From the NCBI GenBank assembly GCA_044229535.1, contig JBGASU010000001.1, positions 1,406,969-1,470,968 on the forward strand: a stretch of DNA of 64,000 nt, given 5' to 3'. A model generated the notes under the pieces. It was not told the origin of the DNA and ran no database searches. It saw only the letters and a program-made list of their open reading frames with translations. Position 1 is the first letter of the stretch. Each line of letters begins with the position of its first letter. This document shows positions 5,513-57,892 of this stretch, piece after piece. The stretch comes from Candidatus Midichloriaceae bacterium (lineage in GTDB: Bacteria; Pseudomonadota; Alphaproteobacteria; Rickettsiales; Midichloriaceae). Made by a program: the position numbers and the translations under genes.

Positions 5513-7366
5513 TTACTCCTCTAAAGTTCTATAACTTGGGAAAGTAACCGTAAATGTTGTGCCTTTTTCAGGCGTGCTTTTTACAGTGATATTTCCTTCA
5601 TGGGCTAATGCACATTCTTTTGCATAGGCTAATCCAATTCCATAACCTATTGCTCGAGATGTTTCTTTATTTTTTAGTCTAGTGAATTTTTTAAATATCT
5701 TTTCCAGATCTTCTTTTGCAATACCTATTCCTGTATCGGCAACTTGTAAGACTATTTGATTTTTAGAATTTTTATTTGCTTCTATATCGATGGCGCCATC
5801 TTGCTTATTATATTTAGCAGCATTCGATGCTAAATTTTGTATTAGTTGGCCAATCATCATTTCGTCACCTAGTATTTTTAGGTTTTGTTCGACATTTATG
5901 CTGATTTTAATGTTTCTGTCTTTTGCATGATGACGAATCATACTGATATTCCATTCTATCAATTCTTTGACATCTAAATGTTTTTCTTCGATATGCTTTC
6001 TTGCTTCTTGAAATTTAAATAGGCGCAAAAAGAAGTTGAGCTGCTTATTTTGGTAAATTGATGTTTTATGAATAATATCTGCAAATTCTTTTAGCTCGTC
6101 GTCTTTGTATTTATCTACTTTTTTTACTAATAGTTGTGCAAAGCCAATTATACTAGAAATGGGGTTAATAAGTTCGTGGCTTAAGAATGACATGTTGCTT
6201 TTAATGAAGGCATTTGCTTGCTCAAGATCTTGATTCGCTTTACCAAGTTGGCTTTGTTTGATTCTGAGATTCTTAGTGGTGTTTGCAATATTCGCAAGTT
6301 GTAGTGATAAAGTATTTAGCTCATTTGCTTTATATGAAGGTACCCTTACATTCTTACCTTTTGATATATTATCTGCAGCTTGTCCTAGTTCTATAATAGG
6401 CTTTATTACTTGGTAACCTAAGAAAAGTAATATCGAAGTAAAAATCACCCCTAATGTGATATACATTATAACTTTTGGGAGTAATTCTTCTTTCAGCTCT
6501 TGATAATATAAGTGTTTATTCTGTCCTATAAACAGGCTGAATGGGTATTTGCTCGAATGCGTTATGTGCGTGTAGATATATTGTTGGGCATCTACAGGTT
6601 TGGATAGTTCATTAACGTCTATATCATGATCGTGTAAAAGTATCTCTTTAATCTGATCTGAAAACAGAAAATTATCTTGATTTAAAACGGGTTCTGACGA
6701 AGTTATAAAGTTTAATTCATCATCATAAATCACAAAGCTTATTTCGTCATTGCTGGCTTGTAAAAGTCGTGTAGTTAGCTTTTCAATGCTAATTCCTGCT
6801 GATAGATATCCTATAAATTTTTCGTTATTTTTATCGTTTATTCCAACAGCACTTGGCAAAATATAATCTCCGGAGGAGAGGCCTATATCAGGCTTGGAAA
6901 ATTGCATAGCCCATGGGTGTGTCCTAGATTTTTCAATCCAACTTCTTTTGGCGTAATTCAGTTTTATAGGCGTCACAAATCCGTTGATGCTATCTGCGAT
7001 TAATAAGCCGTCAGGTCGAGCAAAGTGTATGGCATGCCAAGCGAAGGAGTCATCTTTGAAATTGTCATGATGATGCCTTACGAGTTCAGCTATAGATTTA
7101 TCACTTAGATCCGTATTATTACTAATTTTTGTACCTAAAAACTGCAATAGATGCTCTATGAGCTTTAGTTTGTCATCGAAGTCATTTACGAGTTTTTGTC
7201 CTTCTTTTTCAATAAATATGCGCTTGTCTTCTCTATAGGAATGATAGGTTGAAAAGGATATCCATATTGTGATTATCAATATTAAAGATATCACAGCTAC
7301 GGTAAAATATAGATACTGTTGAGCTAGTGAGTGTTGTCGTGATCGCAATGATTCTAAAATCCACAT
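5513..7366 (-). CDS. Sensor histidine kinase (TM - extracytoplasmic sensor - TM - HAMP-like - HisKA - HATPase)
   Basis: 617 aa. H-box FLSHELINPISSIIGF, N-box NLASNAAKYN, G1 DTGIGI, G2 GYGIGLAYA. Two TM segments flank a ~270-aa extracytoplasmic domain. No adjacent response regulator. Confidence 0.9.
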   Translation of the reverse strand: MWILESLRSRQHSLAQQYLYFTVAVISLILIITIWISFSTYHSYREDKRIFIEKEGQKLVNDFDDKLKLIEHLLQFLGTKISNNTDLSDKSIAELVRHHHDNFKDDSFAWHAIHFARPDGLLIADSINGFVTPIKLNYAKRSWIEKSRTHPWAMQFSKPDIGLSSGDYILPSAVGINDKNNEKFIGYLSAGISIEKLTTRLLQASNDEISFVIYDDELNFITSSEPVLNQDNFLFSDQIKEILLHDHDIDVNELSKPVDAQQYIYTHITHSSKYPFSLFIGQNKHLYYQELKEELLPKVIMYITLGVIFTSILLFLGYQVIKPIIELGQAADNISKGKNVRVPSYKANELNTLSLQLANIANTTKNLRIKQSQLGKANQDLEQANAFIKSNMSFLSHELINPISSIIGFAQLLVKKVDKYKDDELKEFADIIHKTSIYQNKQLNFFLRLFKFQEARKHIEEKHLDVKELIEWNISMIRHHAKDRNIKISINVEQNLKILGDEMMIGQLIQNLASNAAKYNKQDGAIDIEANKNSKNQIVLQVADTGIGIAKEDLEKIFKKFTRLKNKETSRAIGYGIGLAYAKECALAHEGNITVKSTPEKGTTFTVTFPSYRTLEE

Positions 7367-7492
7367 AGGAAATTCTAATTGAATTAGATAATTGGTAACA
7401 AAATTTATTGAAGTTGCAAACTTATATTTTTTCTAAAATAGCAAAACTTTCTTGTAGCATTTTATAAAAACTGTGTTATAAGTCTTTATCAT

Positions 7493-7567
7493 TCCTCGGT
7501 AGCTCAGTGGTAGAGCAAGCGGCTGTTAACCGCTCGGTCGCTGGTTCGAGTCCGGCCCGAGGAGCCA
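7493..7567 (+). tRNA. tRNA-Asn (anticodon GTT), CCA encoded
   Basis: Hand-folded cloverleaf: acceptor TCCTCGG/CCGAGGA, D arm GCTC-AGTGGTA-GAGC, anticodon arm AGCGG-CTGTTAA-CCGCT, T arm GCTGG-TTCGAGT-CCGGC, discriminator G, then CCA. Confidence 0.93.
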
Positions 7568-7667
7568 TTTTTTAAATCCCCCCAATTTCATTTCGTTAAA
7601 CTAAATTATTTTTTTGCAGCAAGCTGTAATTTTTGTTTTATGAATTTCGTTCGAAATGTGTCGAAAT

Positions 7668-7683
7668 TTAACAAAACTTTAAC
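7668..7683 (+). promoter_or_regulatory. CtrA-box-like site TTAA-N7-TTAAC upstream of the 1182-aa ankyrin gene
   Basis: TTAACAAAACTTTAAC. It ends 22 nt upstream of the -10 hexamer at 7706-7711 and 58 nt upstream of ATG 7741. Confidence 0.5.
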
Positions 7684-7702
7684 AAATTCCGCACCTTAAT
7701 TG

Positions 7703-7711
7703 TGTTATAAT
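7703..7711 (+). promoter_or_regulatory. Extended -10 promoter element (TGtTATAAT)
   Basis: TGTTATAAT at 7703-7711, about 30 nt upstream of ATG 7741. RBS-like GAGGGGA at 7728-7734. Confidence 0.5.
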
Positions 7712-7740
7712 GTCCATTTGATACGACGAGGGGAATCTCA

Positions 7741-10700
7741 ATGAACTTGCAGGAATTTAGAGCATTAGACGAATTTCAAAGATTTGATTTTTTAAAAGAA
7801 CTGGCAGGCGATGAACTCAGAGCTTTTGCTAGGGAAGTGGGTGCTGAGCAAGGAGCATCTCCCATGTTAGCAAGGATTTCTGCTAGTCCAAATTCAAACG
7901 ATGCAACTATAAAAAATCAATTAAAGATAGAATTGAGAAAGCTAGGCCTTACTTTTCAAGAGAGGCAGGCTGATATGCAGTTTGATGTTGCTGAACAACC
8001 TCAAGAGCAATTTAGTTGGGAAAAAATTAAAAGAGCGCCGTTCATTGAGCGAAAGCCAACACCGATTGATGAAGCCACAAAAGATGCTTTCTTACAGCAA
8101 TTTTATCAAGGTGAAGTGGTTGATGTTGATACAATAAACCCACTAAGCAATATTCAGGCAGTAAGAGCGCAGGTCGAATTGGTTTGCCAAAAAATGGTTG
8201 GCTATGGCTTTAGAAATTTTAATGACTTGAAAGATAAGTTTGCGGATCTGGCATTTAATATTGAAAGTGCAGAACAGCGTCAAAGAGATTTTTCCAATGC
8301 CAAGCAGATTAAGCAAGTAATGGAGTCGATTTTATACTTTGTGGAAAATACTCCTGAAGTTTCAAGAAGAGAGCTTATTGCAAATTACAAAGATACTAGA
8401 TTTATATGTGGTGATGGGACGCTGCAAAACCTAATTGATATTTTTAGCGAAATGCAATTAGGTAAAGCTGACATAGCTGCCTATGTAGCGTGGGCGAAGA
8501 GGAAAGTAGTTATTGATACGTTCTTGCCAATGTATGAACAAAATTTCTTTCACGAAGCTGGTTTAATTTACCGTATAGGAAATGAAAGGCATTATGTTGA
8601 TTCATTAATTAACGCAGTTGCTGATGAATTTGGTCTGGTAGTTCGAACACAAGATGAGGACAGGTTTATTAAAGACGCATCTAGGTATAGGGAGTTTCTG
8701 CTGGGTGAATTGAACCGAGTTTTTGCACAGCCTGAAGTGCTTAAAAACATTTTTGGCTTGGTAGTCGCTAAAATTTCTTCAAACCTTGAAAATGGCATAG
8801 ATAAGATACTGCCTGTCCAAAACCAAGTGCAAGATTTTTTAGGTAAGCTGGGAGTAGGTGATAAGTATAATTATTTCCATTTGGTGAATTGTAAAGAGAA
8901 TGGACTTAAGGATGACTTCAAAAGGGTTGTAGAGTCAATAGTTGCAAATTACATGCATGAGCAGCGTGTTATCAAGGTATCTAACATAAAACATATTTGC
9001 CAATTATTGAAAATTGCTGGCTCTTATAATTCGCAGTATAGGCAAGTTATTACCAGAGAAAATTTCCCAGAAGACGCGGATAATAACAAGGGATTTGTTA
9101 ACTTTATTTTAATTCAAAATATAGAATTAGATGAAGCTCAATTTGGAACTAAAAGCCCAATATTATATTTTGCGAGAAAAAATAGGAATATTTTTGCAGA
9201 TTTTAATCTTCCCTTTGTATTCATGCAAAGGCTACTGCAAGAAGCATCTGCTGAAGAGTTAAAAGACATTAATATTCCAGCTGACATTTTAAGATCTTCT
9301 CTCTTCTATGTAAAAACTCCAGAGCAAATTGATGTCTTAATTGCTAAGGGTGCTAATATTCAAGAAATTTCTCTTAATGGCGGCAATGCTACACGGGATG
9401 CAGCATTAAGAGGAGAAAGAGCGATAGTAGATAAATTTGCTGAACAGGGAATAGCCCCAATGAATGTTTTTGAAGGCCATGAAGATGGCGTTGACCAAAG
9501 ACGGGAAGAGGCCTTAATAAATGGCATTGTTGCAAATCAAGAAATTCTGCGACACATCGAAGATGGTGTTCCTAATATTTGTAGAATTGTTAAGTGTGGC
9601 ATGGTAAATGCGCTGCGAAAAGCTTTGGAGTTCCCAGAAGGTAGAGACGCATTAAAACTGAAAGATAAAGATGATAACGTAGCATTGCACTATGCAGCGC
9701 GCCACACAAACCCAGAATTGTTTTTGGAGATAGTAAAAACTACTGAAGGGAGAAGAGCAATAGGAGCTTATAATAAAGATAATTTCACTCCTGTTGAAGA
9801 ATTAATAATTCAGGATAGAGTTGATTTAATTAATGAGGTTCTCAAAACGCCCGAAGGTACGTTGCTTATAAATGGTGGTAACGGTAATAAATCTTTTGTT
9901 GAGCTATCATATGAACATAAGAAATATAGTTATCTTAAAACTTTATTGAAATGCAATATCTCTTTAGATCCAATCCTGAAATACAAAAACAAAGGTATGG
10001 TTCAGGATGCTGTGGATCATGAGGATTTTGAAGTATTTGGAATGCTTATGGAGCGTGCAGAGCTGAGAAACAGGTTGTTTCAATTAGAGCAGGATTCTAT
10101 ACATAAGCTGGATCAGCAAGGTTTACTAAAGCCAATATTAGAAAAATATTGGTTAGAAATTTTGGAAGGTATAGATCCTGAAGATATGGCTTTTTTTGCA
10201 GAATTCGTTTTAAAGTTTGGTTTATTAAATCAAGACATAGATGAGAAACATTCTCATGTGCTCTCAAGATTTTTACTATCGTTACAGAATTTTTATTTTC
10301 CAATGACAGATGATCTTGATAAAGTTATTAGCTTGATTATGTCTAACAAAGAGGTGCAAAAATTAGTTGTTACGGTCGACCCTCTCAGACCTCATGAGAA
10401 TGTTTTTAAACGTTTAGTAGCAGCAGGCGCCACTCAAGCTGTAGAGGCAATTCTAAATGATGATTTTCTAAGAAGGAGTCTCTATTTAACAGATGCTCAG
10501 TGCAATACTTTCCTTCATAATGTAGAGTGTAGTGAGGGCGATCCAAGTGCTTTCAATGATTATTATTTAGAAAGTTCAGAACAACAAGACAGTTTTTTTG
10601 ATTGTTTACGAAGCATAGCAGATAACCCGCATTTAAAAGCAGCTTTGCCAAGTCTTCTTTCAACCAGAAATGGTATTGGGTTTACGCCTTTACAATCGGC

Positions 10701-11289
10701 TTTAGAAGACATGCAAGAGTTGTTTCTAATCTTATTAGATTGGAGTGTGAGGCATGAGAACGTTCATTCGTTGCATATTCCAGACAATAAAGGCTGTACA
10801 CCTTTTTATAACGCCTTATTAAAATTGTACGAGATGCATATAATATCTCAGTTTGTTGACGCAGATGCAAGTTTGGTTGATTCGATTTTTGATCATGTAG
10901 ACAACGAAAGGGTGAATGTTATTTCAAGGATACTTGATCAAGCAGGCAACGAAGTCGCCTTTGGTAATGTTTTTGAATTGGTGAAAGACAATCCAATACT
11001 AATGAGAAAATTTATTGACTCTGTTGGATATGAATCAGGGTGTTCTTCGCTTGAATATGCAAGGAGGTATGACATGCCAACAATTGTAGATGCGATATTA
11101 ACTTTTGCTCAAGGTACAAGTCTTGGTTTCTCATTGCCTCCAGCTTCAGTAGAAGCGCAGGCCAGCGCATCTACTGCTTGGATTCCTGATGTTGATGCTG
11201 AAGCAGATGTTGAAATTGCTGACCCAGTATTGAATGAGATGAACAGTGATGAGTTGGAAAAAGCTCGTAGCAAACGTTCTAGGCATTGA
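7741..11289 (+). CDS. Large ankyrin-repeat protein, candidate secreted effector
   Basis: 1182 aa. ANK-like repeats include DKDDNVALHYAARHTNPELFLEIV, NGIGFTPLQSALEDMQELFLILL and DNKGCTPFYNALLKLYE. No signal peptide. Acidic region followed by a basic C-terminus (EKARSKRSRH). Confidence 0.8.
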   Translation: MNLQEFRALDEFQRFDFLKELAGDELRAFAREVGAEQGASPMLARISASPNSNDATIKNQLKIELRKLGLTFQERQADMQFDVAEQPQEQFSWEKIKRAPFIERKPTPIDEATKDAFLQQFYQGEVVDVDTINPLSNIQAVRAQVELVCQKMVGYGFRNFNDLKDKFADLAFNIESAEQRQRDFSNAKQIKQVMESILYFVENTPEVSRRELIANYKDTRFICGDGTLQNLIDIFSEMQLGKADIAAYVAWAKRKVVIDTFLPMYEQNFFHEAGLIYRIGNERHYVDSLINAVADEFGLVVRTQDEDRFIKDASRYREFLLGELNRVFAQPEVLKNIFGLVVAKISSNLENGIDKILPVQNQVQDFLGKLGVGDKYNYFHLVNCKENGLKDDFKRVVESIVANYMHEQRVIKVSNIKHICQLLKIAGSYNSQYRQVITRENFPEDADNNKGFVNFILIQNIELDEAQFGTKSPILYFARKNRNIFADFNLPFVFMQRLLQEASAEELKDINIPADILRSSLFYVKTPEQIDVLIAKGANIQEISLNGGNATRDAALRGERAIVDKFAEQGIAPMNVFEGHEDGVDQRREEALINGIVANQEILRHIEDGVPNICRIVKCGMVNALRKALEFPEGRDALKLKDKDDNVALHYAARHTNPELFLEIVKTTEGRRAIGAYNKDNFTPVEELIIQDRVDLINEVLKTPEGTLLINGGNGNKSFVELSYEHKKYSYLKTLLKCNISLDPILKYKNKGMVQDAVDHEDFEVFGMLMERAELRNRLFQLEQDSIHKLDQQGLLKPILEKYWLEILEGIDPEDMAFFAEFVLKFGLLNQDIDEKHSHVLSRFLLSLQNFYFPMTDDLDKVISLIMSNKEVQKLVVTVDPLRPHENVFKRLVAAGATQAVEAILNDDFLRRSLYLTDAQCNTFLHNVECSEGDPSAFNDYYLESSEQQDSFFDCLRSIADNPHLKAALPSLLSTRNGIGFTPLQSALEDMQELFLILLDWSVRHENVHSLHIPDNKGCTPFYNALLKLYEMHIISQFVDADASLVDSIFDHVDNERVNVISRILDQAGNEVAFGNVFELVKDNPILMRKFIDSVGYESGCSSLEYARRYDMPTIVDAILTFAQGTSLGFSLPPASVEAQASASTAWIPDVDAEADVEIADPVLNEMNSDELEKARSKRSRH

Positions 11290-11341
11290 GAAAATGAATG
11301 AATTCTCGATCTATACTTGATATACTATAAGTCTTTAGCAT

Positions 11342-11418
11342 TCCTAGGCGGCTCAGTGGTAGAGTAAGCGGCTGTTAACTGCTCGGTCGCTGGTTCGAGT
11401 TTTTAGTCCGAGGAGCCA
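11342..11418 (+). pseudogene. Decayed copy of tRNA-Asn(GTT)
   Basis: Aligns with 7493-7567 and keeps the anticodon loop CTGTTAA. Defects: C in place of U8, an A:G mismatch in the acceptor stem, and the 3' T-stem strand CCGGC replaced by TTTTAGT, so no T arm can form. Confidence 0.8.
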
Positions 11419-11521
11419 TTTTCCCCCATTTCATATCTTTATCTAAAAAAGTCTTTTGTAAAATTACCTCTGCTTGCTTTTTCTGGCGTATGGGGTAGAA
11501 TCTTCTCACTACTAACTAATC

Positions 11522-14281
11522 ATGGTTAAGCCCTTGTCAGCGAATACAAACATCAACCTATCGTCGATGCAGCCTATCTCAATTGAAAACGAGATGAGAA
11601 AGTCTTATTTAGACTACGCAATGAGCGTTATCGTATCACGTGCACTACCAGATTGTAGGGATGGTTTAAAGCCTGTTCATAGGCGTATTCTTTTCGCTAT
11701 GCACGAGGCTAATAACTACCACGATAAGCCTCACAAAAAATCAGCCAGAATCGTCGGTGACGTAATGGGTAAATATCACCCTCATGGTGATAGCGCCATT
11801 TACATGGCATTAGTTCGTATGGCTCAAGATTTCTCTCAGAGAGTAGCTCTTATCGATGGGCAAGGTAACTTTGGTTCAATGGATGGCGATGCTCCTGCGG
11901 CAATGCGTTATACAGAGTCACGTTTAGCAAAAATTTCATCATCCATGTTGGTTGATCTTGATTATCAAACCGTAGATTTCCAACCTAACTATGACGGTTC
12001 TGAAAAAGAGCCAAGAGTGCTGCCAGCACAATTTCCAAATTTATTAGTGAACGGAACAAGTGGTATTGCCGTTGGTATGGCAACTAACATTCCTACCCAT
12101 AACTTGGGCGAAGTTATCGATGCTTGTATCGCTTATATTAAAAATCGTGAAATTACATTAGAAGAAGTATTAGAATTAGTCCCAGCACCAGATTTTCCTA
12201 CAGGCGGTGTTATTATGGGGCATGCTAGAGCAAGAACGGCACTTGCAACTGGTAGAGGATCTATTGTCGTGCGTGGTAAAATTGATTTTGAAGAAATAGG
12301 TGGGCGTAATGCTATTGTTGTTCATGAGTTGCCATATCAGGTTAATAAATCTGAATTATTAAAACATGTTGAGCAATTATCGCGCGATAAAGTGATTGAA
12401 GGCATTTATGAAATGCGTGATGAGTCAAATAAGCTTGGCGTTCGCATGGTGTTTGAACTTAAAAAAGACGTAGTTCCAGATGTCGTATTAAGTCAGCTTT
12501 ATAAATTCACAGCCTTACAGACTAGCTTTGGCGTAAATATGTTAGCCTTGCATCAAGGCAGACCAATGACCATGAATGTGTTGGATATTGTTAAAGCATT
12601 CGTAGAATTTAGAGAAGAAGTTGTAACACGCAGAATTTCATTCCTACTAAATAAAGCGCGTACTAGAGCCCATGTTTTAATTGGCTTATCATTAGCAGTT
12701 GCTAATATTGATGAAGTGATCGCTCTTATTAAATCTTCGCAAGATCCAGTTGTTGCTAAGAAAAAATTAATGGATAAATTCTGGGATGCAGAAACAGTAA
12801 TTCCATTATTAAAACTTGTAGATGACTATAGAAACGAATTGAAAAACAATCAGTGTAAATTTACTGATGAGCAAGCAACTGCAATTTTAGAAATGAGATT
12901 GCAAAGACTTACTGGCCTTGAGAAAGACAAAATTGAAAAAGAATTAGGAGAGCTTGCGACTGAAATTAAAGACTATCTTGAAACTTTAGGATCTAAAGAA
13001 AAATTGATGGGTATAATTACCACAGAGTTACTAGATATTAGAGAAAGATTTGCGACACCTCGTAAAACAGAAATTCAAATTAATGACGATGATGTTGATA
13101 TTGAAGATTTAATTCAACGTGAAGACATGGTTGTAACAACGACATTAGGTGGCTATATCAAACGCGTACCACTCGCAACATACCGCGCGCAAAAACGTGG
13201 TGGTAAAGGTCGTTCGGCGGTTACCATGAATGATGATGATATGACAACCGATATCATTGTATCAAATACACATACTCCACTCCTATTCTTCTCAGATGCT
13301 GGAAAAGTATATCGTTTGAAAGTTTACAAACTTCCTTTAGGAAACCCACAAGCAAAAGGCAGGGCATTAGTAAACTTGTTGCCTTTAGCGCAAGATGAGA
13401 AAATTACCAATATTACCCCGATGCCGGAAGATCCGGCGACATGGGAACATTTCGCAATTATGTTTGCAACTGCGCAAGGCAACATTAGAAGAAATGATCT
13501 TGCTGCGTTCTCAAACATCAATGCCAATGGTAAAATTGCAATTCGTCTTGATGAAGGGGATAAATTGATTGGCGTTAATATCTGTAATGAAACCGATCAC
13601 GTTATGCTTTCAACTAAGAAAGGCAAATCACTACGATTCCCTGCAAATGCTATTCGTGTGTTCAAGAGTAGAACATCAGACGGCGTGCGTGGTATTAAAT
13701 TAGCACAAAAAGGTGATGCCGTAGTCTCAATGGCAATATTGAAAGACTCGACTATCTCTATTGAGAAGCGTGAAGAGTTCTTAAAAATTCCAGTTGAATC
13801 AAGAAAAGAATTCGTCACCAATAAAGATCAAGCAGCATTTGAAGCAAAAATTGCGGAAAGAGCAATTGAGAACAGAACTATAACCACAGATGAAGCTTGT
13901 CAGCTTGCAATTGGTGAAGAATTTATTCTTTCAATGACTGAAAAAGGCTACGGTAAACGCTCTTCGGCTTATGAATATCGTGTAGCAGGCCGTGGTGGAC
14001 AGGGCGTGTTTAATATAGACACCTCAGACCGTAATGGCGATGTAATTGCCAGCTTCCCAGTGGATGAGGGTGACCAAATTATTCTTATCACTAATGCTGG
14101 TACGCTAATTAGAACAAACGTTAAGGACATTCGTATCACTGGCAGGAATGCAATGGGTGTTCGTCTACTTAACACCAAGGAAAACGAAAAAGTAATTTCA
14201 GCAACACGCGTTCTTGGTTCTGAAGAAGCTGAAAATGAGTTGAACGAAGCTTTGGAGGCTGCAGCAGATGCCAATAGTTGA
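11522..14281 (+). CDS. gyrA: DNA gyrase subunit A
   Basis: 919 aa. [53 protein letters not shown]-terminal beta-pinwheel repeats. Confidence 0.97.
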
Positions 14282-14456
14282 AGTAAAGATGCTTGAAGGT
14301 CGTACTGACGACCAAAAGCGTAAATTAGTAAAAGAGATTACAGAAGTCATCTGTCGCACTATAGACTCAACACCTGAAAAAGTACGAGTATTCATCAACG
14401 AAATGCCTAAGAAACACTATGCTATTGGCGGAGTTCTGGAGAGTGATAAGAGCTAA
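14268..14456 (+). CDS. 4-oxalocrotonate tautomerase family protein
   Basis: 62 aa. [26 protein letters not shown] has catalytic Pro1 and the typical beta-alpha-beta length. 14-nt overlap with the gyrA end. Confidence 0.85.
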
Positions 14457-14571: not shown

Positions 14572-14638
14572 GGATGTGCTAATTTTTGCTTAAAGCCCGC
14601 ATTCGCGGTGCAAAAATCCCCCCCCCAAGAGCACATCC
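14572..14638. repeat. Long imperfect hairpin carrying a C9 bulge
   Basis: GGATGTGCT (14572-80) pairs with AGCACATCC (14630-38). ATTTTTGC (14582-89) pairs with GCAAAAAT (14610-17). Apical CCGC-ATTC-GCGG at 14597-14608. C9 tract at 14618-14626. Confidence 0.6.
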
Positions 14639-14762
14639 AAACATCTTCTTCTCATTACTTGTTTTTCTAACACCCCCCCCTATTTTACAACCTATAGGTT
14701 ATCAGATAAAAAACCAGCCAGCCCAAATTACTTAGCTAAGTTTTTAATATTTTTAGCTCAAA

Positions 14763-14778
14763 TTAACCATTTCTTAAC
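14763..14778 (+). promoter_or_regulatory. CtrA-box-like site TTAA-N7-TTAAC upstream of the 714-aa orphan gene
   Basis: TTAACCATTTCTTAAC. It ends 51 nt upstream of ATG 14829. The core AAATTAACCATTTnTTAA is shared with 24838-24855. Confidence 0.5.
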
Positions 14779-14828: not shown

Positions 14829-16973
14829 ATGTCCCAGTTCCAACGCTTCATTTCACAAGATTTTTATTTGAGTCGGGATTTTCCAAGCGATGGAAGTGCT
14901 GGCCCATTTACAGGATATGGCGCACAAGAGGAGCAGTTATACAACGCTTATATGGCTGCAAGGAGAGTAGATAATTTTGATGCTGATAAATATCGTAAGG
15001 CTGGAGAGGCATATTTTAAGTTTCAACAAGACTACCGTACTGATCCTAACTCTTCTATTCCACTTGTTTTATCTCAGGAACAGCAGATATTTGAATCTTG
15101 GAAACAAGCTAATCCACAATCCCTAAATCCAGAACCTCTTACTGAGACAACCCGTGCACACTCTGTTATTTATGATCAACTCCCTCCTACATCGATGAAT
15201 AGATTTGAATTCCAAAAAATAATAACGGGTTTACAGGGGGTGGGTGACACCAAATCAGGGGAGGTAAATAATGCTGCTCAGAGGTTTGAAAATGCAAATA
15301 AAAAAGGTAATGAAAAATATGCAGATCTAGGGGCTATTCCTTTGAGAGGAGTTGCAGATTTTGCTAAAGAGTACCAAAAGCAAAATATTGATAAAGATAA
15401 GAAACAACAAGACTTCCCACTTAATATAATTACGGACAGAAAGAATGCGCCAATGCTGAAGCTTGCATCAGAAGATCCTAAACTTGCTGCTGCAGCTATT
15501 GAAGCATTTAAAGAGCGCGGAGGAGAGAAGGGGCTGAATGCTTATAAAGCTGCAGATATTGGTAAAGGTATAGAATTAGCAATGACTGCTGCAAATAATG
15601 TTGTTGGTGAAGATTCAAAAAAACAGGCAATTAAAAATGTAAGGAATTTACTAATCGACAACAAATTTGATCAGAAAAAAGTTAAAGCAATTGAAGATGG
15701 GGTAAAAGGAACGATTCCTCAGAAAACACAATTTGCCGAAAAAATGCGTCAGAATCTAGGGTTGTTTGGAAAAGCTGGGGATGATTATGCAATTAATCTT
15801 CACCCCATAGATAGCTGGAAGAATACAAAAGAAACTGCCAAAAAAATTAAAACAAATAATCCATTTAAATCATTATACAATATAGTAAAATTGGTAGCTT
15901 ATGAAATCCCTAAGTTAGCTGTCTCTTTGGTTGTTGCCACACCTATTGCTGCAATAAGAGCTGGGGTTCAAACTGTAAAAGAGAATAAAAATCAAAGATT
16001 AGCTAAGGCTGCTGAAAATTGTTCGAAATATCCAAAAGTAGCTGCTGCAGTTCGCAATGCTCTTGGAGCTGGTGGTAAGAAAAAAGTTACGAATAAGGAA
16101 TTAAATAAAGTAATGGCTGCTTTAGGTAAGAAAGCCCAAGTTTTAGAAAATTCAACTCTATCAAAAGAAACTATAACTAATGCGTTAAATTCAAAAGCTT
16201 CAGCAACACATCATCTATCTAATGATACCAAGAAGGATTATGTAGTTAAACAAGAAAAAGAAAAGCAAATACGTAAGCTCGTTGATGATGCTCCTGAGCT
16301 TAAAAAATTGGATAAAAATGCTAAAGCGGAGATTGTAGCAAAGCTAATGGATCTTCATAAACCAGATAATTCGCCTGATCCTAAGAAAAACCAAGCGGCA
16401 CATCACTCTCTCAATTTCGCTTTAAAAAATGAGACATTAGTATCAAGACTAGTTAATGAATCGGTGAAAGTTCATAGTGCTGTAACCCGCGACCAAAATC
16501 TCAATAAAAAAGTTGAGCAGCAATTCAAAGATACATCGAAATTAACCAATTTAGAGCAAGTAGCTCAAGGTAAGAGCTCTGTAGTTCTAGATGATCTATA
16601 CAAATTAGCAGATAGAAGTAAAAAACCTGAAGTCTCTCAAGAAGTGGATTCGCAATTAAGGCAAAGTTTTAAAAGCGAGCAAACAAAACTAGAAGAAAAA
16701 AGGCAAGCTTGGGAGAAGGCATATAGTAAAGGTGAAGATACTATAAATTACGAGAAAGACTATATAAAGCAACAACAGGTTTTAGATAAGGCAGGTAAAG
16801 AATATTTTAAAGAAAAAATCAAAACTGCAGTGCCAGAAGAAGCAGAAAAAATGGCGAACAACATTGCGGGCTATAAACAGGCCATAGCCAATGCCGACAA
16901 GAGGATAGGTGAGCTGAGCCCAGATCAAGTGCCAAAAACAGGTCAAACAACAACTCGAGCACGTGGGGTGTAA
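14829..16973 (+). CDS. Hypothetical Lys/Glu-rich 714-aa protein with one central hydrophobic segment
   Basis: Long ORF with coding-like composition and no recognisable catalytic motif. Hydrophobic stretch IVKLVAYEIPKLAVSLVVATPIAAI. Basic C-terminal tail. Confidence 0.6.
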   Translation: MSQFQRFISQDFYLSRDFPSDGSAGPFTGYGAQEEQLYNAYMAARRVDNFDADKYRKAGEAYFKFQQDYRTDPNSSIPLVLSQEQQIFESWKQANPQSLNPEPLTETTRAHSVIYDQLPPTSMNRFEFQKIITGLQGVGDTKSGEVNNAAQRFENANKKGNEKYADLGAIPLRGVADFAKEYQKQNIDKDKKQQDFPLNIITDRKNAPMLKLASEDPKLAAAAIEAFKERGGEKGLNAYKAADIGKGIELAMTAANNVVGEDSKKQAIKNVRNLLIDNKFDQKKVKAIEDGVKGTIPQKTQFAEKMRQNLGLFGKAGDDYAINLHPIDSWKNTKETAKKIKTNNPFKSLYNIVKLVAYEIPKLAVSLVVATPIAAIRAGVQTVKENKNQRLAKAAENCSKYPKVAAAVRNALGAGGKKKVTNKELNKVMAALGKKAQVLENSTLSKETITNALNSKASATHHLSNDTKKDYVVKQEKEKQIRKLVDDAPELKKLDKNAKAEIVAKLMDLHKPDNSPDPKKNQAAHHSLNFALKNETLVSRLVNESVKVHSAVTRDQNLNKKVEQQFKDTSKLTNLEQVAQGKSSVVLDDLYKLADRSKKPEVSQEVDSQLRQSFKSEQTKLEEKRQAWEKAYSKGEDTINYEKDYIKQQQVLDKAGKEYFKEKIKTAVPEEAEKMANNIAGYKQAIANADKRIGELSPDQVPKTGQTTTRARGV

Positions 16974-27359: not shown

Positions 27360-27815
27360 TTAATTCACAGAATCATTGGCGGCGCTTGCAGTCTCGTCAG
27401 CTTTTTTCTTCAGATATAACCCCATGAAATCAACAGGGTTTAACATTAATGGGGTAAATCCTCCATCTCTTGTTGTATCAGATATCAAGCGTCTTACATA
27501 AGGGAATAATACGTTTGGACAATGAACTAGCAATATCCTTTCTAATTCGTCTTTGTTATCTTGAATGATCCCAAATACGCCAGCATATTTTATCTCCAGT
27601 ACAAATACGGATTCAGTTTCTGAGCCACCAGCTACGTTTACAGCAAGTTCAACTTCAAATGTATTCTCTTGTAGTTGAGCTACATTAACATTAACCGATA
27701 CGTTAATATTACCTTGCCCATCAAAAGATAGGGATGCTGGTGCTTTTGGATTTTCAAAAGAAAGATCTTTTATATATTGAGCTAGTACGTTGAATGTATT
27801 TGCTGTTTGTTCCAT
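27360..27815 (-). CDS. secB: Protein-export chaperone SecB
   Basis: 151 aa. FNVLAQYIKDLSFENPKAP and ILLVHCPNVLFPYVRRLISDTTRDGGFTPLMLNPVDF are typical SecB. Confidence 0.93.
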   Translation of the reverse strand: MEQTANTFNVLAQYIKDLSFENPKAPASLSFDGQGNINVSVNVNVAQLQENTFEVELAVNVAGGSETESVFVLEIKYAGVFGIIQDNKDELERILLVHCPNVLFPYVRRLISDTTRDGGFTPLMLNPVDFMGLYLKKKADETASAANDSVN

Positions 27816-27918
27816 TTTTTATAATCCTCAATAAATATTTAAAGCTATATTGCTATTAACTCGAAGTGTAAGTATTATTAGGTGGAAATGATAGCTTAGT
27901 TCAGGAAGATTTACAAGT

Positions 27919-28593
27919 ATGCTTGATATTATATTTTTTGCGATTATTGCAGCGTTCATAATTTCTAGGTTGTTCAAGATATTGGGTGATACTCAGTATG
28001 AAAAAGAAGATAGGCCGCAAAACCAAGATGTTGAAACTAGCATCTTTAGAGGGTTTGGCGTTGAAAATGAAGATGATTTGAGGAAGGAAATAATACAGCA
28101 AATTGACATGATGTCCGCATTGGAAGCTAGTCTTCCAGAAGATCAAAGAAAAGTATTTGAGCAGTTGCGAGAGAGTGATGTTACATTTACTGCGGATAAA
28201 TTTGTTGAGGGCGCAAAAGCTGCTTTTGAAATGATAGTAAAAGCTTTATCAGATGGGGATAAAGAAACACTTTCTCGTCTTCTAGACCCTGAAGTATACG
28301 AAGATTTTGCAAAGGAAATTGATAGAAGGACTGAAGCAAATCAAAAGCATGAAGTAACAATAGTGGCGATGAAATCTTGCGATATTACCGATGCCGATAT
28401 TGAAAAAGGAAAGGCTAATATTGCTGTAAAAATAGTAAGCGAACAAATCAATTTAGTTAAAGCAATAAGTGATGGTGTTTTATTAGGTGGTAATCCATCT
28501 AAAATAAACATAGTGACGGATGTTTGGATGTTTTCAAAGCCATTCAATTCAAAAAATAAAATGTGGCAATTGGTTTCTACAGATGTGGCTTAA
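27919..28593 (+). CDS. Tim44-like domain protein
   Basis: 224 aa. N-terminal TM and C-terminal Tim44-type domain. Conserved alphaproteobacterial position between secB and mltA. Confidence 0.75.
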   Translation: MLDIIFFAIIAAFIISRLFKILGDTQYEKEDRPQNQDVETSIFRGFGVENEDDLRKEIIQQIDMMSALEASLPEDQRKVFEQLRESDVTFTADKFVEGAKAAFEMIVKALSDGDKETLSRLLDPEVYEDFAKEIDRRTEANQKHEVTIVAMKSCDITDADIEKGKANIAVKIVSEQINLVKAISDGVLLGGNPSKINIVTDVWMFSKPFNSKNKMWQLVSTDVA

Positions 28594-29710
28594 CAAAATT
28601 CTTTTAAGTCTTGTCGTGATTTTATTTATTACGGGCTGTGGCTCTGTACAAAAATCAAGAACTGTAAAGCTTAGTAAGGCAAATTTTTCTGAGATTTCAA
28701 ATTGGCAGAAAGATAGACATGGTGCTGCCATGGATGCTTTTATTAATTCTTGTGAAAGGTTTCTAAATCAAGATCCTGAAAAACCAGTAAGTTCTCTAAC
28801 TAGTATGGGTGGGTCGGTAATAGATTGGCAAGTACCTTGTATGGAAGCGACTATTCAAAGCAAGTATACAGACAAAGAAGCCAAAGCATTTTTTGAAAAA
28901 TGGTTTGTCCCTTATAAAGTAACTGATGAGGAGTTAAATCCTAAAGGTACCCTAACTGGCTATTTCGAAATTGAGCTGACTGGTAGTAAAAAAAGAGATT
29001 CAAAATATCAGTATCCAATATACATGAGGCCGCCAGAGCTTAATGATGTTAAAGGCTCTTCAGATATCCAACATTCAGCTATTAATGATGGAGTATTGTC
29101 TGGGAGAAATTTAGAAGTGGCTTGGGTGGATAATAGGGCAAGATTATATTTTATGCACATCCAAGGTTCGGGCGTTATTAAGTTAAAGGAGGGTGGAGAA
29201 ATGAGATTGGGCTTTGATGGTCATAATGGATATAGGTTTCAAGGGATAAGCCAAGCTCTACGAGAAGAAAATGCTAGATTAGATTCAGCTAATTCAATGA
29301 TGGATTGGCTTCATGCCAACCCTGAGAGATGTAAGAGGGTTATTGAATCTGATCCTTCTTATGTGTTCTTTAAAAAAGTACAGTCTAATAGTGCTATTGG
29401 GGGACAGGGTGTCCCACTTAAAACAGAAAGATCGCTTGCAGTAGATTGTGGGCTTTATCCTTATGGGACCCCGATCTGGGTAGATGCGGATTTGCCACAA
29501 ACACAAGTTTATAATGCTGGAAAATACACTAGATTATTTATAGCCCAAGACACAGGCGGGGCAATTCGTGGGCCAGTTAGAGGTGACATTTTCTTCGGTC
29601 GTGGTAAAAAAGCTGAAAAAGTGGCTGGTGGATTTAAAACTAAGGGCGTGTTTTATGCACTGTTTCCAAGAACCGTGAAAATACCAGAAATATATACGGC
29701 GATGAATTAA
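28583..29710 (+). CDS. mltA: Membrane-bound lytic murein transglycosylase A (lipoprotein)
   Basis: MltA/3D-domain region (VAWVDNRARLYFMHIQGSG, LAVDCGLYPYGTPIWVD, FIAQDTGGAIRGPVRGDIFFG). The likely start ATG 28583 gives MWLNKILLSLVVILFITGC with a lipobox. The track ORF starts at 28520. Confidence 0.9.
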   Translation: MWLNKILLSLVVILFITGCGSVQKSRTVKLSKANFSEISNWQKDRHGAAMDAFINSCERFLNQDPEKPVSSLTSMGGSVIDWQVPCMEATIQSKYTDKEAKAFFEKWFVPYKVTDEELNPKGTLTGYFEIELTGSKKRDSKYQYPIYMRPPELNDVKGSSDIQHSAINDGVLSGRNLEVAWVDNRARLYFMHIQGSGVIKLKEGGEMRLGFDGHNGYRFQGISQALREENARLDSANSMMDWLHANPERCKRVIESDPSYVFFKKVQSNSAIGGQGVPLKTERSLAVDCGLYPYGTPIWVDADLPQTQVYNAGKYTRLFIAQDTGGAIRGPVRGDIFFGRGKKAEKVAGGFKTKGVFYALFPRTVKIPEIYTAMN

Positions 29711-32887: not shown

Positions 32888-34333
32888 TTACCTTTGGTTA
32901 CCTCTATCTCGGCTTTGCTCTATATTTTTCACCTGTTCATCATAGAATTCAGTAATATCTCCAGACATAGCTTTTGCTGCGCCTTCTAATACATTCCATC
33001 CTGCAGAAAATGCGTTATAGGCCTTACTTTTTACGCAACCTTTTAACAACAAAAATTTCATTTCTGTAGGAAGTAATTTGTTTAGCAGAGTGCTTAATGG
33101 TGGGCAAACTCCTGCTGACAAGAACATTTCGATCACTTCTTTATTTCGATGAGCTGCACATACAGTAAGAGCATTGTCACCAAATCTATTCATCGGCTCT
33201 AAAGCTGTTCTTAGGAGGTCAGGGTAATCTTTGATTGCACTAATTAGTTCTGCAATCAATTTGGTATCATTACGCATAGCAGCCCTAAAAAGTAAATTTG
33301 CATTAAAAAAATCACGATTATCAAAAGAACTTTTTAAGAAATTATAATTGTATTCTGCTGCTTCTAGTATTGATTTCATTAACTCGTTATCTCCATTATT
33401 TACTGCATGGTAGAGCGTGGTGAAGCCAGAATTATCTCTTGCCCAGATGTTGTAATTAGGGTGAGCAAAGCATTTTGAGAAAATATATGCAGCTGTACTA
33501 TCAGACAAGCGATTGAAATTATAAATATAATGCCCTTGGGATATTAGATCTAAAGCCAGAGCTATATTGCCATTTCCCAACGCAGTAATTAGTTCTGGGC
33601 TATTTTGGCCATTATGCCCTTCATAATAACCTAAAAACCTATGCAGCTCTTTTAGTAGATCTTTATTACCAGCAACAAATAAATCTTTATAAAAGTCCTG
33701 CAAATCTTCCTTAGTATCTAGATTGTATAGTGGCATATTTTGTATGCCTTTTATTCCTTGGCCACATCCATTCTCAACAAGGTATTTGAATATTTCAAAT
33801 TGCCCATATCTCAAAGCAAAAGCTAGCGGTGATATAAATTCTCTTACGTTATCTAATGTTTTAATAGTGGGCAGTCTAAAGTCCTCAGCTTCATTAAAAT
33901 TTTCTTTTGTCTTCTCAATTTCTTCTGGTGTCTTATTTCTCTGCTCGCCTGCGCGATAATCGAAGACTTTGAACTCCTTTTTATGATATGGCGCTAGAAT
34001 TTTTAAGAGTTTTAAGCTGTTGTGTCTAATTGCCGCTTCCAAAGCATTATCGCCATCAATACTCTTTTCTTCATTGGTTTTTGGGTCTGTATATACTGCT
34101 GAGCTTCTTAAATTCAAAACTTCAGCATTTTTAGCAACTATAGCGTTTACAACTGTTTCTAAATTAAAGCTCATATCCCAAGCATCCTGCTCTGACGGGG
34201 CAAGCATGTGCAAAATGGTGTTCCCATTTTTATCTTGCTCTAATATTTGCTCTGGAGTTAAGTCGGCAATTATCTCAAGCGCTTGTTCGGTTGTAACTCC
34301 TCTAACATTAAAAATGTCGGATATACTTCTCAT
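32888..34333 (-). CDS. Ankyrin-repeat protein, candidate effector
   Basis: 481 aa. ANK repeats include KNGNTILHMLAP, DGDNALEAAIRHNSLKLLKIL, SGFTTLYHAVNNGDNELMKSIL and FGDNALTVCAAHRNKEVIEMFLSAG. No signal peptide. Basic C-terminus (SRDRGNQR). Confidence 0.85.
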   Translation of the reverse strand: MRSISDIFNVRGVTTEQALEIIADLTPEQILEQDKNGNTILHMLAPSEQDAWDMSFNLETVVNAIVAKNAEVLNLRSSAVYTDPKTNEEKSIDGDNALEAAIRHNSLKLLKILAPYHKKEFKVFDYRAGEQRNKTPEEIEKTKENFNEAEDFRLPTIKTLDNVREFISPLAFALRYGQFEIFKYLVENGCGQGIKGIQNMPLYNLDTKEDLQDFYKDLFVAGNKDLLKELHRFLGYYEGHNGQNSPELITALGNGNIALALDLISQGHYIYNFNRLSDSTAAYIFSKCFAHPNYNIWARDNSGFTTLYHAVNNGDNELMKSILEAAEYNYNFLKSSFDNRDFFNANLLFRAAMRNDTKLIAELISAIKDYPDLLRTALEPMNRFGDNALTVCAAHRNKEVIEMFLSAGVCPPLSTLLNKLLPTEMKFLLLKGCVKSKAYNAFSAGWNVLEGAAKAMSGDITEFYDEQVKNIEQSRDRGNQR

Positions 34334-34394
34334 GTAAAAACCTTAATTATATGTTTGACATGTGTATTATAACACAGTTTTAGCGTGGAATTTA

Positions 34395-34409
34395 TTAAGA
34401 TTTTGTTAA
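34395..34409 (-). promoter_or_regulatory. CtrA-box-like site TTAA-N7-TTAA upstream of the 481-aa ankyrin gene
   Basis: Plus strand TTAAGATTTTGTTAA; on the gene strand TTAACAAAATCTTAA, close to the 7668 site TTAACAAAACTTTAA. Its near edge is 62 nt from ATG 34333. Confidence 0.5.
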
Positions 34410-34452
34410 ATTTTGTTGGTATTTCTTAGGGGTGGTCGAAATTAAGAGTTTT

Positions 34453-35174: not shown

Positions 35175-35894
35175 ATGGTAAAAAATTTGCAACCAATGAT
35201 ATTAGTTGTTGAAGACGATGATTCTATATCTTCCATAATCAAGTATAATTTGAAAAAAGCGGGATACTTAGTCAATGTTGTTGATAATGGAAATGATGCC
35301 ATTGATTTTGCAAAAGGTAGTACTCCAGATTTAGTTTTATTAGATTGGATGCTTCCAGGAATGACAGGAATTGATGTATGTAAAGCATTAAGGTCTATGC
35401 CTGAAACAGCTAATATTCCAATTATAATGTTATCTGCTAAAGGCGAAGAAATAGATAAAATTACAGGTCTTGAAAGAGGAGCTGATGATTATATCACAAA
35501 ACCTTTCTCACCAGTCGAGTTGTCTGCAAGAATAAAGGCCGTATTAAGAAGAATAAGACCAGCTTTCTCTGGTAAATTTTTAGAGTTTGATGATATAATA
35601 ATGGATCTTTCTATGCACACAGTGTCGCGTGATGGTAAAGAATTAAAAGTATCGCCTATTGAATTCAAAATTCTCCAATCATTGATGGAAAATCCAGGCA
35701 GAGTTCTATCTCGTGAAGCGATAATGGATAAAATTTGGGGCACTGAAATCTATGTTGGAACTAGAACTATAGATGTTCACATTACTAGATTAAGAAAAAT
35801 TTTAGTCGCTTCAAGCAAGGACGGCGAAGATGTTATCAAGACAGTTAGGCTTGGTGGTTATGCTCTAAAAACTGGTAAGAAAAAAGAAAAATAA
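35175..35894 (+). CDS. phoB: OmpR/PhoB-family response regulator, PhoB-like
   Basis: 239 aa. DLVLLDWMLPGMTGIDV, MLSAKGEEIDKITGLERGADDYITKPFSPVELSARIKAVLRR and RTIDVHITRLRK closely match the PhoB pattern as I remember it. Confidence 0.8.
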   Translation: MVKNLQPMILVVEDDDSISSIIKYNLKKAGYLVNVVDNGNDAIDFAKGSTPDLVLLDWMLPGMTGIDVCKALRSMPETANIPIIMLSAKGEEIDKITGLERGADDYITKPFSPVELSARIKAVLRRIRPAFSGKFLEFDDIIMDLSMHTVSRDGKELKVSPIEFKILQSLMENPGRVLSREAIMDKIWGTEIYVGTRTIDVHITRLRKILVASSKDGEDVIKTVRLGGYALKTGKKKEK

Positions 35895-38521: not shown

Positions 38522-38537
38522 TTAACTTTTTATTAAC
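38522..38537 (+). promoter_or_regulatory. CtrA-box-like site TTAA-N7-TTAAC upstream of the truncated CckA paralog
   Basis: TTAACTTTTTATTAAC. It ends about 46-49 nt upstream of the start (TTG 38583 or ATG 38586). The second half-site continues as TTAACCATT, as at 14763 and 24841. Confidence 0.45.
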
Positions 38538-52490: not shown

Positions 52491-52795
52491 GAGTTGGCGA
52501 TCCATTCTAGATAAGTATTATTCAAGCTTTCAATAGAAATTTCTACAATGCAGGGCACTTCGTAAGGGTGAAGTTTGGATATCATTTCCATGGTTTTTTC
52601 TATTAATTTTTTCTTTGTCTTGATAAACATTATCAATTCTTGAGAATTTTCAACCTTGCCTTTCCATTTGTAAATGGATGTAGTGTTGTGAATAATATTA
52701 ACGCAAATCGCCAAGTTATCGGTTATTAATTTATTGGCTATCTTATCCGCATTATTCTTTGAATCGATAGTGACATATAGAAATGAAAAAGACAT
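52487..52795 (-). CDS. cutA: Divalent-cation tolerance protein CutA
   Basis: 102 aa. LAICVNI, SIYKWKGKVENSQE and HPYEVPCIVEI. Confidence 0.88.
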   Translation of the reverse strand: MSFSFLYVTIDSKNNADKIANKLITDNLAICVNIIHNTTSIYKWKGKVENSQELIMFIKTKKKLIEKTMEMISKLHPYEVPCIVEISIESLNNTYLEWIANS

Positions 52796-57781: not shown

Positions 57782-57892
57782 TTATTGCCCAAATAGCGAG
57801 TCCATAAGTTTTTTATTTTCTACGGTATGCAATTTCATGTAAGCAACAGCAGGTGAAGCAGAACGTTCGCGTCCGATATATCTTGCACACGT
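57782..57892 (-). pseudogene. Displaced 37-codon relic of the sucA 3' end
   Basis: The minus strand reads TCARYIGRERSASPAVAYMKLHTVENKKLMDSLFGQ*, against the live sucA C-terminus TRAKYIGRERSASPAVGYMKLHTVESKKIMDALFG* (58994-59101). An in-frame TAA lies three codons upstream (57899-57901) and there is no start codon. Confidence 0.85.

Follow-up and report, generated by a model that had tools for sequence, protein, structure and literature searches.

Does a gene that lies just 3' of a tRNA gene, and is closed off at its far end by a decayed copy of the same tRNA, mark the remnant of a foreign, tRNA-targeted island? This question was raised by a 64,000-nucleotide stretch of DNA from a Candidatus Midichloriaceae bacterium (contig JBGASU010000001.1, positions 1,406,969 to 1,470,968), referred to here as the window, in which a gene for an ankyrin-repeat (ANK) protein of 1182 amino acids (aa), ank, lies between an intact tRNA-Asn(GTT) gene and a pseudo-tRNA-Asn followed by gyrA. 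The initial annotation had interpreted the arrangement as the remnant of a tRNA-targeted island that delivered an effector or, alternatively, as the product of recombination between two tRNA-Asn loci. The anatomy described there and its restriction to a single lineage were borne out by our analysis, whereas a foreign, tRNA-targeted island origin was not. With moderate confidence, we interpret the locus as a scar left by rearrangement without an integrase in a Midichloriaceae genome that has been heavily shuffled, that is, an insertion or relocation with target duplication or an equivalent two-step path. The repeat of a whole tRNA unit, the native character of the gene, the absence of recombinase genes among those scanned, and the module-level shuffling together point to a rearrangement scar rather than to a degraded integrase-borne island.

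The tRNA-Asn unit and its decayed duplicate

The two copies of the direct repeat that bracket ank (coordinates of all features are collected in Table 1) were 92% identical across 75 nucleotides (7477–7551 versus 11326–11400, E = 1.4e-23, blastn), and in a gapped alignment of 7477–7594 with 11326–11437, 99 of 120 columns were identical. The weak similarity that may extend to ~7616 and ~11458 had a score reached by 2 of 1000 shuffles, and there was no match between the copies upstream of the TATAAG hexamer. The repeat takes in 16 bp upstream of the tRNA, starting from the first base of the -10 hexamer, the entire tRNA, and approximately 30–50 bp beyond the CCA. Between the copies, no open reading frame (ORF) of 80 aa or more was present other than ank, and the bracketing of a single gene by direct repeats, on which the initial annotation was built, proved to be real.

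In the upstream copy, ARAGORN called tRNA-Asn(GTT), the Rfam score was 67.8 bits, and all 75 of 75 nucleotides were identical to the tRNA-Asn of two relatives, L007 and L008. Copy 1 is a functional-type tRNA with a cloverleaf above the detector thresholds and conserved in relatives, as had been claimed. No tRNA was called by ARAGORN in the downstream copy, which was also below the Rfam gathering score; in a lenient search with Rfam RF00005 it gave 20.6 bits against a cut-off of 29 and matched model positions 9–63 only. The lesions previously ascribed to this copy were all present: C5 was changed to A, making an A:G mismatch in the acceptor stem, U8A9 was changed to CG, and CCGGC in the 3' strand of the T-stem was replaced by TTTTAGT. 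Two further stem changes led to G:U pairs. Copy 2 is a non-functional pseudo-tRNA that fails the tRNA-detector thresholds. Minimum-free-energy folding was uninformative, the cloverleaf being the minimum-free-energy structure of neither copy.

The spacer upstream of copy 1 aligned over approximately 100 bp with L007 and L008, whereas copy 2 shared only the sequence from TATAAG onward. Both copies had TATAAGTCTTTA and a CCCCC-ATTTCAT trailer in common; at the position of TATAAGTCTTTA, L007 and L008 had TATAAATTCTGT and TATAAATCTTAAC, respectively, and the trailers of both also differed. Since both copies carry lineage-specific flank bases, the duplication arose inside the lineage of the window, and since the tRNA of copy 1 is identical to that of the relatives, every change in the tRNA body occurred on copy 2. 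The region at 7452–7482 reads as a promoter and would drive the intact tRNA; copy 2 is without its TG motif and -35 region, which would be a simple reason why copy 2, and not copy 1, decayed.

The order of tRNA, ank, pseudo-tRNA, and gyrA is not an artefact of assembly, as it was recovered with 100% identity over 7505–13921 of the window in Logan contig L001 (SRR28480390), an independent short-read assembly containing the intact T-arm specific to copy 1, ank, the pseudo-tRNA with its own mutations, and then gyrA. That L001 begins inside tRNA copy 1, and its assembler thus broke at the repeat, is what would be expected if a repeat at the tRNA gene had been collapsed or mis-joined; such an error is nevertheless extremely improbable, because L001 spans the distinguishing features of both copies and because 21 of 120 aligned columns distinguish the copies, which makes them distinct loci.

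Two side observations concern the sequence around the copies. A terminator-like hairpin (GCTCGG...TCGAGT) followed by TTTTT is located at 11381–11405, in the mutated T-arm of the pseudo-tRNA and approximately 90 nucleotides past the ank stop codon, and ank transcription might now end at the decayed tRNA; the count of terminator-like sites (four versus 2.6 by chance) was not above chance. Four of the five intergenic plus-strand runs of at least five C in the 64 kb coincided with module junctions in this 7-kb region; of these, two, with 8–9 C, were within the 377-bp spacer after the tautomerase gene that follows gyrA. A C-run was also found after the tRNA-Asn in L007.

Table 1. Positions of the features discussed (window coordinates)
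Feature	Position	Strand	Remarks
PhoR/PnpS-like sensor histidine kinase	5513–7366	-	Pfam HisKA/HATPase_c; best NCBIfam matches PnpS/PhoR; conserved left flank of tRNA-Asn
tRNA-Asn promoter-like region	7452–7482	+	TTGTAG 7452–7457; TG 7474–7475; -10 TATAAG 7477–7482; read from sequence
Direct repeat copy 1	7477–7594	+	weak similarity perhaps out to ~7616
Intact tRNA-Asn(GTT)	7493–7567	+	ARAGORN and Rfam
Junction filler, repeat copy 1 to ank promoter	7595–7659 (65 bp)	+	no significant match
ank promoter module	7660–7740	+	CtrA-type box TTAACAAAACTTTAAC 7668–7683; extended -10 TGTTATAAT 7703–7711
CtrA-type boxes	7668–7683, 14763–14778, 38522–38537		each 60–73 bp upstream of a plus-strand ORF (ank, 714-aa ORF, and 276-aa ORF, respectively)
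ank	7741–11289	+	N-terminal domain ~aa 90–490; ankyrin repeats ~aa 460–830; alpha-helical C-terminal region; acidic-then-basic tail
ank 3' spacer	11290–11325 (36 bp)	+	no homology to the ank–gcvT spacer of relatives
Direct repeat copy 2	11326–11437	+	TATAAG retained, TG motif and -35 region absent; weak similarity perhaps to ~11458
Pseudo-tRNA-Asn	11342–11418	+	66/77 identical to copy 1; T-arm destroyed
gyrA-tautomerase module	11472–14453	+	promoter TTGCTT...TGGGGTAGAAT; gyrA 11522–14281; 4-oxalocrotonate-tautomerase-like gene 14268–14453
C-runs at junctions	7578–7583, 11423–11427, 14618–14626, 14673–14680	+	
714-aa ORF	14829–16973	+	CtrA-type box 14763–14778

Ancestry of the ankyrin gene

Besides ank itself, only three full-length homologues were found among 5.8 billion proteins, all on Midichloriaceae-type contigs: the orthologues P0002 (63% identity) and P0003 (60%) from two related assemblies, and the paralogue P0004 (40%) from the same 1.54-Mb chromosome. 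P0002 and P0003 were 65% identical to each other, and the pairwise orthologue identities of 60–65% thus describe a trichotomy, in which nothing points to a recent transfer. An exhaustive HMMER search of a 1.84-billion-protein library, with the single ank protein as the query, added fragmentary orthologues at 62–78% identity. In both relatives with a full-length orthologue, the gene order was SDF transporter, 196-aa gene, ank, and gcvT-gcvH-gcvP, with no adjacent tRNA. Homology between the window and these relatives started at ~7660, directly after the stop codon of the relatives' upstream gene, and the ank promoter was conserved upstream of the orthologues in L002/L004. The gene is of native ancestry and was relocated as a module of promoter plus ORF. 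Its composition was ordinary as well, with a GC content of 36.7% against a mean of 36.0% and a synonymous codon usage typical of the window (z = 0.21), so that the compositional check for foreignness proposed in the initial annotation gave no support to an imported gene.

In the window's own genome, gcvTHP was found away from ank, directly after tRNA-Leu(TAA), on Logan contigs L025 and L026, whose GcvT was identical to that of the 1.54-Mb chromosome. In these contigs, homology of the gcvT promoter started approximately 5–20 nucleotides from the CCA of tRNA-Leu, with no duplication of the tRNA (L025 516–720, L026 3987–4200). When the fillers at 7595–7659, 11290–11325, and 11437–11471, the last of which separates copy 2 from the gyrA promoter by ~30 bp, were compared with the 196-aa gene, the ank–gcvT spacer, and the rest of the window, no match was above shuffled controls.

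The extended -10 element and CtrA-like box earlier attributed to ank were both present. The box is an exact TTAAC-N6-TTAAC abutting the -35 position, and it also occurred upstream of the paralogue in L005. It resembles the CtrA-box promoters of Alphaproteobacteria (TTAA-N7-TTAAC) in sequence and in place, and is a candidate CtrA site. Three exact TTAAC-N6-TTAAC boxes were found in the window, against 0.36 expected, and the effector-like genes behind them may form a candidate regulon of CtrA type. A 75%-similar copy of the entire ank promoter (box and TGTGTTATAAT) was observed at 34353–34413 on the minus strand, ahead of the ankyrin gene at 32888–34333 (minus strand). A response regulator at 35175–35894 was considered as CtrA and rejected, since it was PhoB-like (292 bits, just under the PhoB cut-off); it is directly followed by a CckA-like hybrid histidine kinase at 35916–38507.

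The 1182-aa product matched Pfam Ank_4 (23.2 bits, cut-off 22.7) and Ank_2 (20.1 bits), and a profile of the family matched solely ANK proteins in the PDB, over aa 528–774, with E-values down to 1e-7. Its AlphaFold2 (AF2) model was all-alpha, with an overall predicted local distance difference test (pLDDT) score of 65.7 and values of 80–90 across approximately aa 460–830, and Foldseek with this model retrieved ANK proteins only. By both the ANK models and the fold, it is an ankyrin-repeat protein. The central ANK array and the presence of several such genes are shared with the ankyrin proteins of Rickettsiales and other intracellular bacteria (Legionella AnkX; Orientia and Wolbachia Anks), from which the product differs in its N-terminal domain of ~400 aa and its C-terminal half, neither of which had a Pfam, NCBIfam, or PDB family match. 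The AF2 model of the N-terminal domain (pLDDT 30–75) was too poor for fold assignment. This domain (window 7741–9230) recurs at 26–34% identity in approximately 45 representative protein clusters, often with C-terminal ANK repeats, and constitutes an undescribed domain family. The acidic-then-basic C-terminal tail is disordered and conserved in the orthologues; a basic C-terminal tail is common among type IV substrates. The product is probably a secreted host-interaction protein, with a putative effector role. Three more ankyrin-repeat genes were found in the 64 kb, at 32888–34333 (minus strand), 52795–54567 (minus strand), and 62056–63576 (plus strand); with four in this length, an ankyrin gene beside any given feature is not unusual in this genome.

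Breakpoints at the tRNA-Asn and gyrA flanks

The histidine kinase on the left of tRNA-Asn was 85–86% identical, and divergently adjoined tRNA-Asn, in L007 and L008/L018, and kinase genes of this identity occurred in Candidatus Midichloriaceae metagenome-assembled genomes; a metagenome scan with the kinase recovered the L008 organism alone again. Although the adjacency of kinase and tRNA-Asn was conserved, the content 3' of tRNA-Asn differed in all three lineages examined. A DUF3800 gene and an 855-aa ORF were located there in L007, and a 284-aa ORF and a LOG-family gene in L008/L018; in L007, the latter block is located beyond the kinase. No relative examined had a second tRNA-Asn copy or ank at the tRNA-Asn site, and the arrangement is lineage-specific, in keeping with the initial annotation. 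Neither were there any att-like partial repeats of tRNA-Asn within ±10 kb in relatives, nor any second tRNA-Asn remnant or att-like repeat in L007, L008, L016, L017, L023, L024, and L027 or downstream of the tautomerase gene.

On the other side, the gyrA promoter was conserved from its -35 box (~11472) in six relatives, and the upstream sequence was unrelated in each. The 5' neighbours of gyrA in L016, L017, L023, L024, L027, and L028 were a 17-kDa antigen gene, dnaJ, the zapA region, a partial ORF, a 567-aa ANK/peptidase C26 gene, and mltA, respectively. In nearly every relative examined, breakpoints fall both in the sequence 3' of tRNA-Asn and at the 5' edge of the gyrA promoter. The direct adjacency of tRNA-Asn and gyrA that the initial annotation had predicted, that is, an empty site, was found in none of the relatives (L007, L008/L018, L016, L017, L023, L024, L027, and L028).

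The gyrA-tautomerase module itself had a discordant history. The gyrA ORF comprised 919 aa (deposited call, 904 aa), and the window showed 89.8% nucleotide identity with L028 exactly over 11472–14451, from the gyrA promoter to the tautomerase stop codon (L028 9906–12885), against 76% for mltA and 70% for secB/tim44, which adjoin gyrA in L028. When synonymous identity was calculated as the third-position identity at codons with identical amino acids, gyrA and tautomerase gave 0.724 (655/905) between the window and L028, whereas SecB, Tim44, and MltA gave 0.518 (286/552; Fisher p = 3e-15), that is, the flank genes were at synonymous saturation. For gyrA, the window versus L028 gave 0.72 and L028 versus L027 gave 0.58 (p = 3e-9), and at the protein level the flank genes paired L028 with L027, whereas gyrA paired L028 with the window. 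In L028, gyrA is directly after MltA downstream of SecB-Tim44-MltA; in L027, the ANK gene is interposed. In the window, SecB-Tim44-MltA (27360–29710) is followed by lpxD, not by gyrA. SecB-Tim44-MltA-gyrA is probably the ancestral neighbourhood of gyrA, and since both L027 and L028 have gyrA after SecB-Tim44-MltA, the window gyrA is the displaced one. The discordance of synonymous identity and topology indicates an exchange of gyrA-tautomerase between lineages that postdates the divergence of their genomes, and suggests that an essential gene was laterally exchanged and displaced. The more parsimonious direction would be a single transfer into the lineage of the window.

Two observations on other genes of these genomes were made alongside. 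L016 and L027 formed a mosaic, in which PBP2 was 96% identical in amino acids and HAD had a synonymous identity of 0.71, against 71% for MreD and 0.51 for Lon; this is a hint that recombination between these symbiont lineages is widespread at the level of genes. The 714-aa ORF downstream of the tautomerase gene had homologues in L007 (855 aa, 43%, 6283–8850, minus strand), one gene beyond tRNA-Asn, and in L016 (884 aa, 36%, 6606–9260), just upstream of gyrA; it may be the remnant of an older neighbourhood or belong to a multi-copy, fast-evolving family. The window also carries flagellar genes, the CckA-like kinase, and the four ankyrin genes, and a 104-nucleotide direct repeat of 75% identity (57789–57892 and 58998–59101, 1.2 kb apart) is located near the 3' end of sucA.

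Origin of the arrangement and its implications

In the rearrangement that we favor, the promoter-plus-ORF module of ank would have been placed in the short spacer just 3' of tRNA-Asn, and the same event would have duplicated a tRNA-Asn unit of ~120–140 bp, from the first -10 base to ~30–50 bp past the CCA. The upstream copy, keeping its native -35/TG context, would have stayed a working tRNA; the downstream copy, keeping the -10 hexamer alone, would have been redundant and decayed by ~14%, including the loss of the T-arm. The most likely ways to an insertion flanked by a target duplication would be a template switch during replication or repair or an unequal joining of sister chromatids, or else Campbell-type homologous integration of a circular intermediate carrying a copy of the same locus. 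This is what we infer of the molecular mechanism, the order of events, and promoter loss as the cause of the decay of copy 2. The locus is like the scars of Campbell-type integration or template switching in that an insertion is flanked by a target duplication of this length with one redundant copy decaying, and differs in that the whole tRNA transcription unit minus the -35 is duplicated and that the intermediates are not observed. It is also like other bacterial rearrangement breakpoints at tRNA genes, in that the breakpoints lie at transcription-unit edges and are reused in relatives.

Several points weigh against this interpretation. No relative has tRNA-Asn directly beside gyrA, the simple state that would precede an insertion into the spacer; ank and gyrA-tautomerase may have arrived in either order; either site of ank may be the ancestral one, as two lineages stand against one with no outgroup; and fragments of closer ank orthologues exist, at 72–78% identity. 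Furthermore, a location 3' of a tRNA, a distal tRNA-derived repeat, and differing cargo in relatives are also the look of a site-specific integration hot spot, and an integrase could be present elsewhere in the 1.54-Mb genome, as the mobile-gene scan covered 64 kb.

In Rickettsiales, ankyrin genes commonly occur as cargo or effectors. Integrative and conjugative elements (ICEs) in Rickettsia integrate at tRNA genes (PMC10732058). The tRNA-adjacent site, its variability in relatives, and the limitation of the integrase search to 64 kb therefore leave a small probability to the remnant of a tRNA-targeted integrative element (a genomic island, an ICE, or an element like the Rickettsiales amplified genetic element, RAGE), in which ank would be foreign, the integrase since lost, and the tRNA copies attL and attR. 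With RAGE of Rickettsia and islands with P4-type integrases, the locus shares the effector-like ankyrin cargo immediately 3' of the tRNA, the tRNA-derived direct repeat at the distal end, and the variable site, with different content downstream of the same tRNA in each lineage examined. However, an att core comprises the 3' part of a tRNA only, whereas the repeat found here takes in the entire tRNA with its 5' half, 16 bp of lineage-specific upstream flank with the -10 box, and the trailer. There was no integrase, transposase, phage, conjugation, or other mobile-element gene among the 44 ORFs (out of 49 of at least 150 aa plus one of 148 aa) scanned with Pfam across the 64 kb, in agreement with the earlier statement that no integrase is left. 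The cargo is a single gene of native composition, vertically inherited in the clade; relatives carry orthologues behind the same promoter, set in a chromosomal operon, and a paralogue is encoded by the genome itself. The distal flank of this cargo is a displaced housekeeping module; around the relatives' variable regions there were no att-like repeats. We therefore regard an island delivering an effector as quite improbable.

A two-step local history would produce a final structure identical to that observed. In such a history, the unit of tRNA-Asn and ank (3849 bp) would have been tandemly duplicated and the second ank then deleted, or a dispersed second tRNA-Asn locus would have been brought adjacent by recombination or inversion, and the redundant copy would have decayed. 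Rearrangements and deletions are many in the genomes of the clade, and the trailer of copy 2 ends ~14–35 bp short of the gyrA promoter, like a deletion end point. We nevertheless consider this history unlikely, though it deserves the most serious attention among the alternatives, since it calls for two events where one suffices and since no remnant of a second ank or further tRNA-Asn copy was found downstream. It also counts against such a history that the tRNAs of Rickettsiales are normally single-copy, and recombination between two tRNA-Asn loci, the other origin offered in the initial annotation, needs an extra earlier duplication. The duplication could instead have been made when the gyrA-tautomerase module arrived from an L028-like Midichloriaceae, downstream of an already resident ank. 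The module-exact nucleotide identity with L028, the higher synonymous identity than in SecB/Tim44/MltA, the conflicting gyrA topology, and the displacement from the SecB-Tim44-MltA neighbourhood all favor such an arrival, and the decay of the pseudo-tRNA (~12–14%) is of the same order as the per-lineage divergence of the module (~27% raw synonymous over two lineages), in what is a rough comparison of ages. On the other hand, the flank bases of copy 2 are of the window-lineage type and not of the L008 type (L008 and L028 come from the same assembly), which indicates that copy 2 did not enter with donor DNA, and the gyrA exchange may have run in either direction. This origin is improbable, only slightly less so than an island.

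The locus illustrates that a tRNA, a direct repeat, and an effector-like gene need not mean a foreign island, since the bracketed gene is native here; it is gyrA, the seemingly stable housekeeping flank, that has the discordant, probably lateral, history. As a rearrangement scar, the feature is a tidy, datable case of the reshuffling of promoter-gene modules in an endosymbiont and of the decay of a redundant tRNA after promoter loss. Its by-products are of greater interest than the scar itself, namely the lateral exchange and displacement of gyrA, the CtrA-type promoters conserved on genes for putative effectors, and the uncharacterised N-terminal domain family fused to ANK. It is also conceivable, though doubtful, that tRNA 3' trailers are landing pads that capture complete promoter-gene modules without a cis-encoded integrase in this lineage; ank after tRNA-Asn with the duplication of the whole unit, gcvTHP ~5–20 nucleotides from the CCA of tRNA-Leu, and the gyrA-tautomerase module beside the pseudo-tRNA, exchanged with another symbiont lineage and displacing the ancestral gyrA locus, would all fit. 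If so, such pads would be a cassette-like, tRNA-anchored route for effector shuffling and essential-gene replacement between co-occurring endosymbionts and, if they hold genome-wide, would allow integrase-free exchange of effectors and essential genes among Rickettsiales symbionts.

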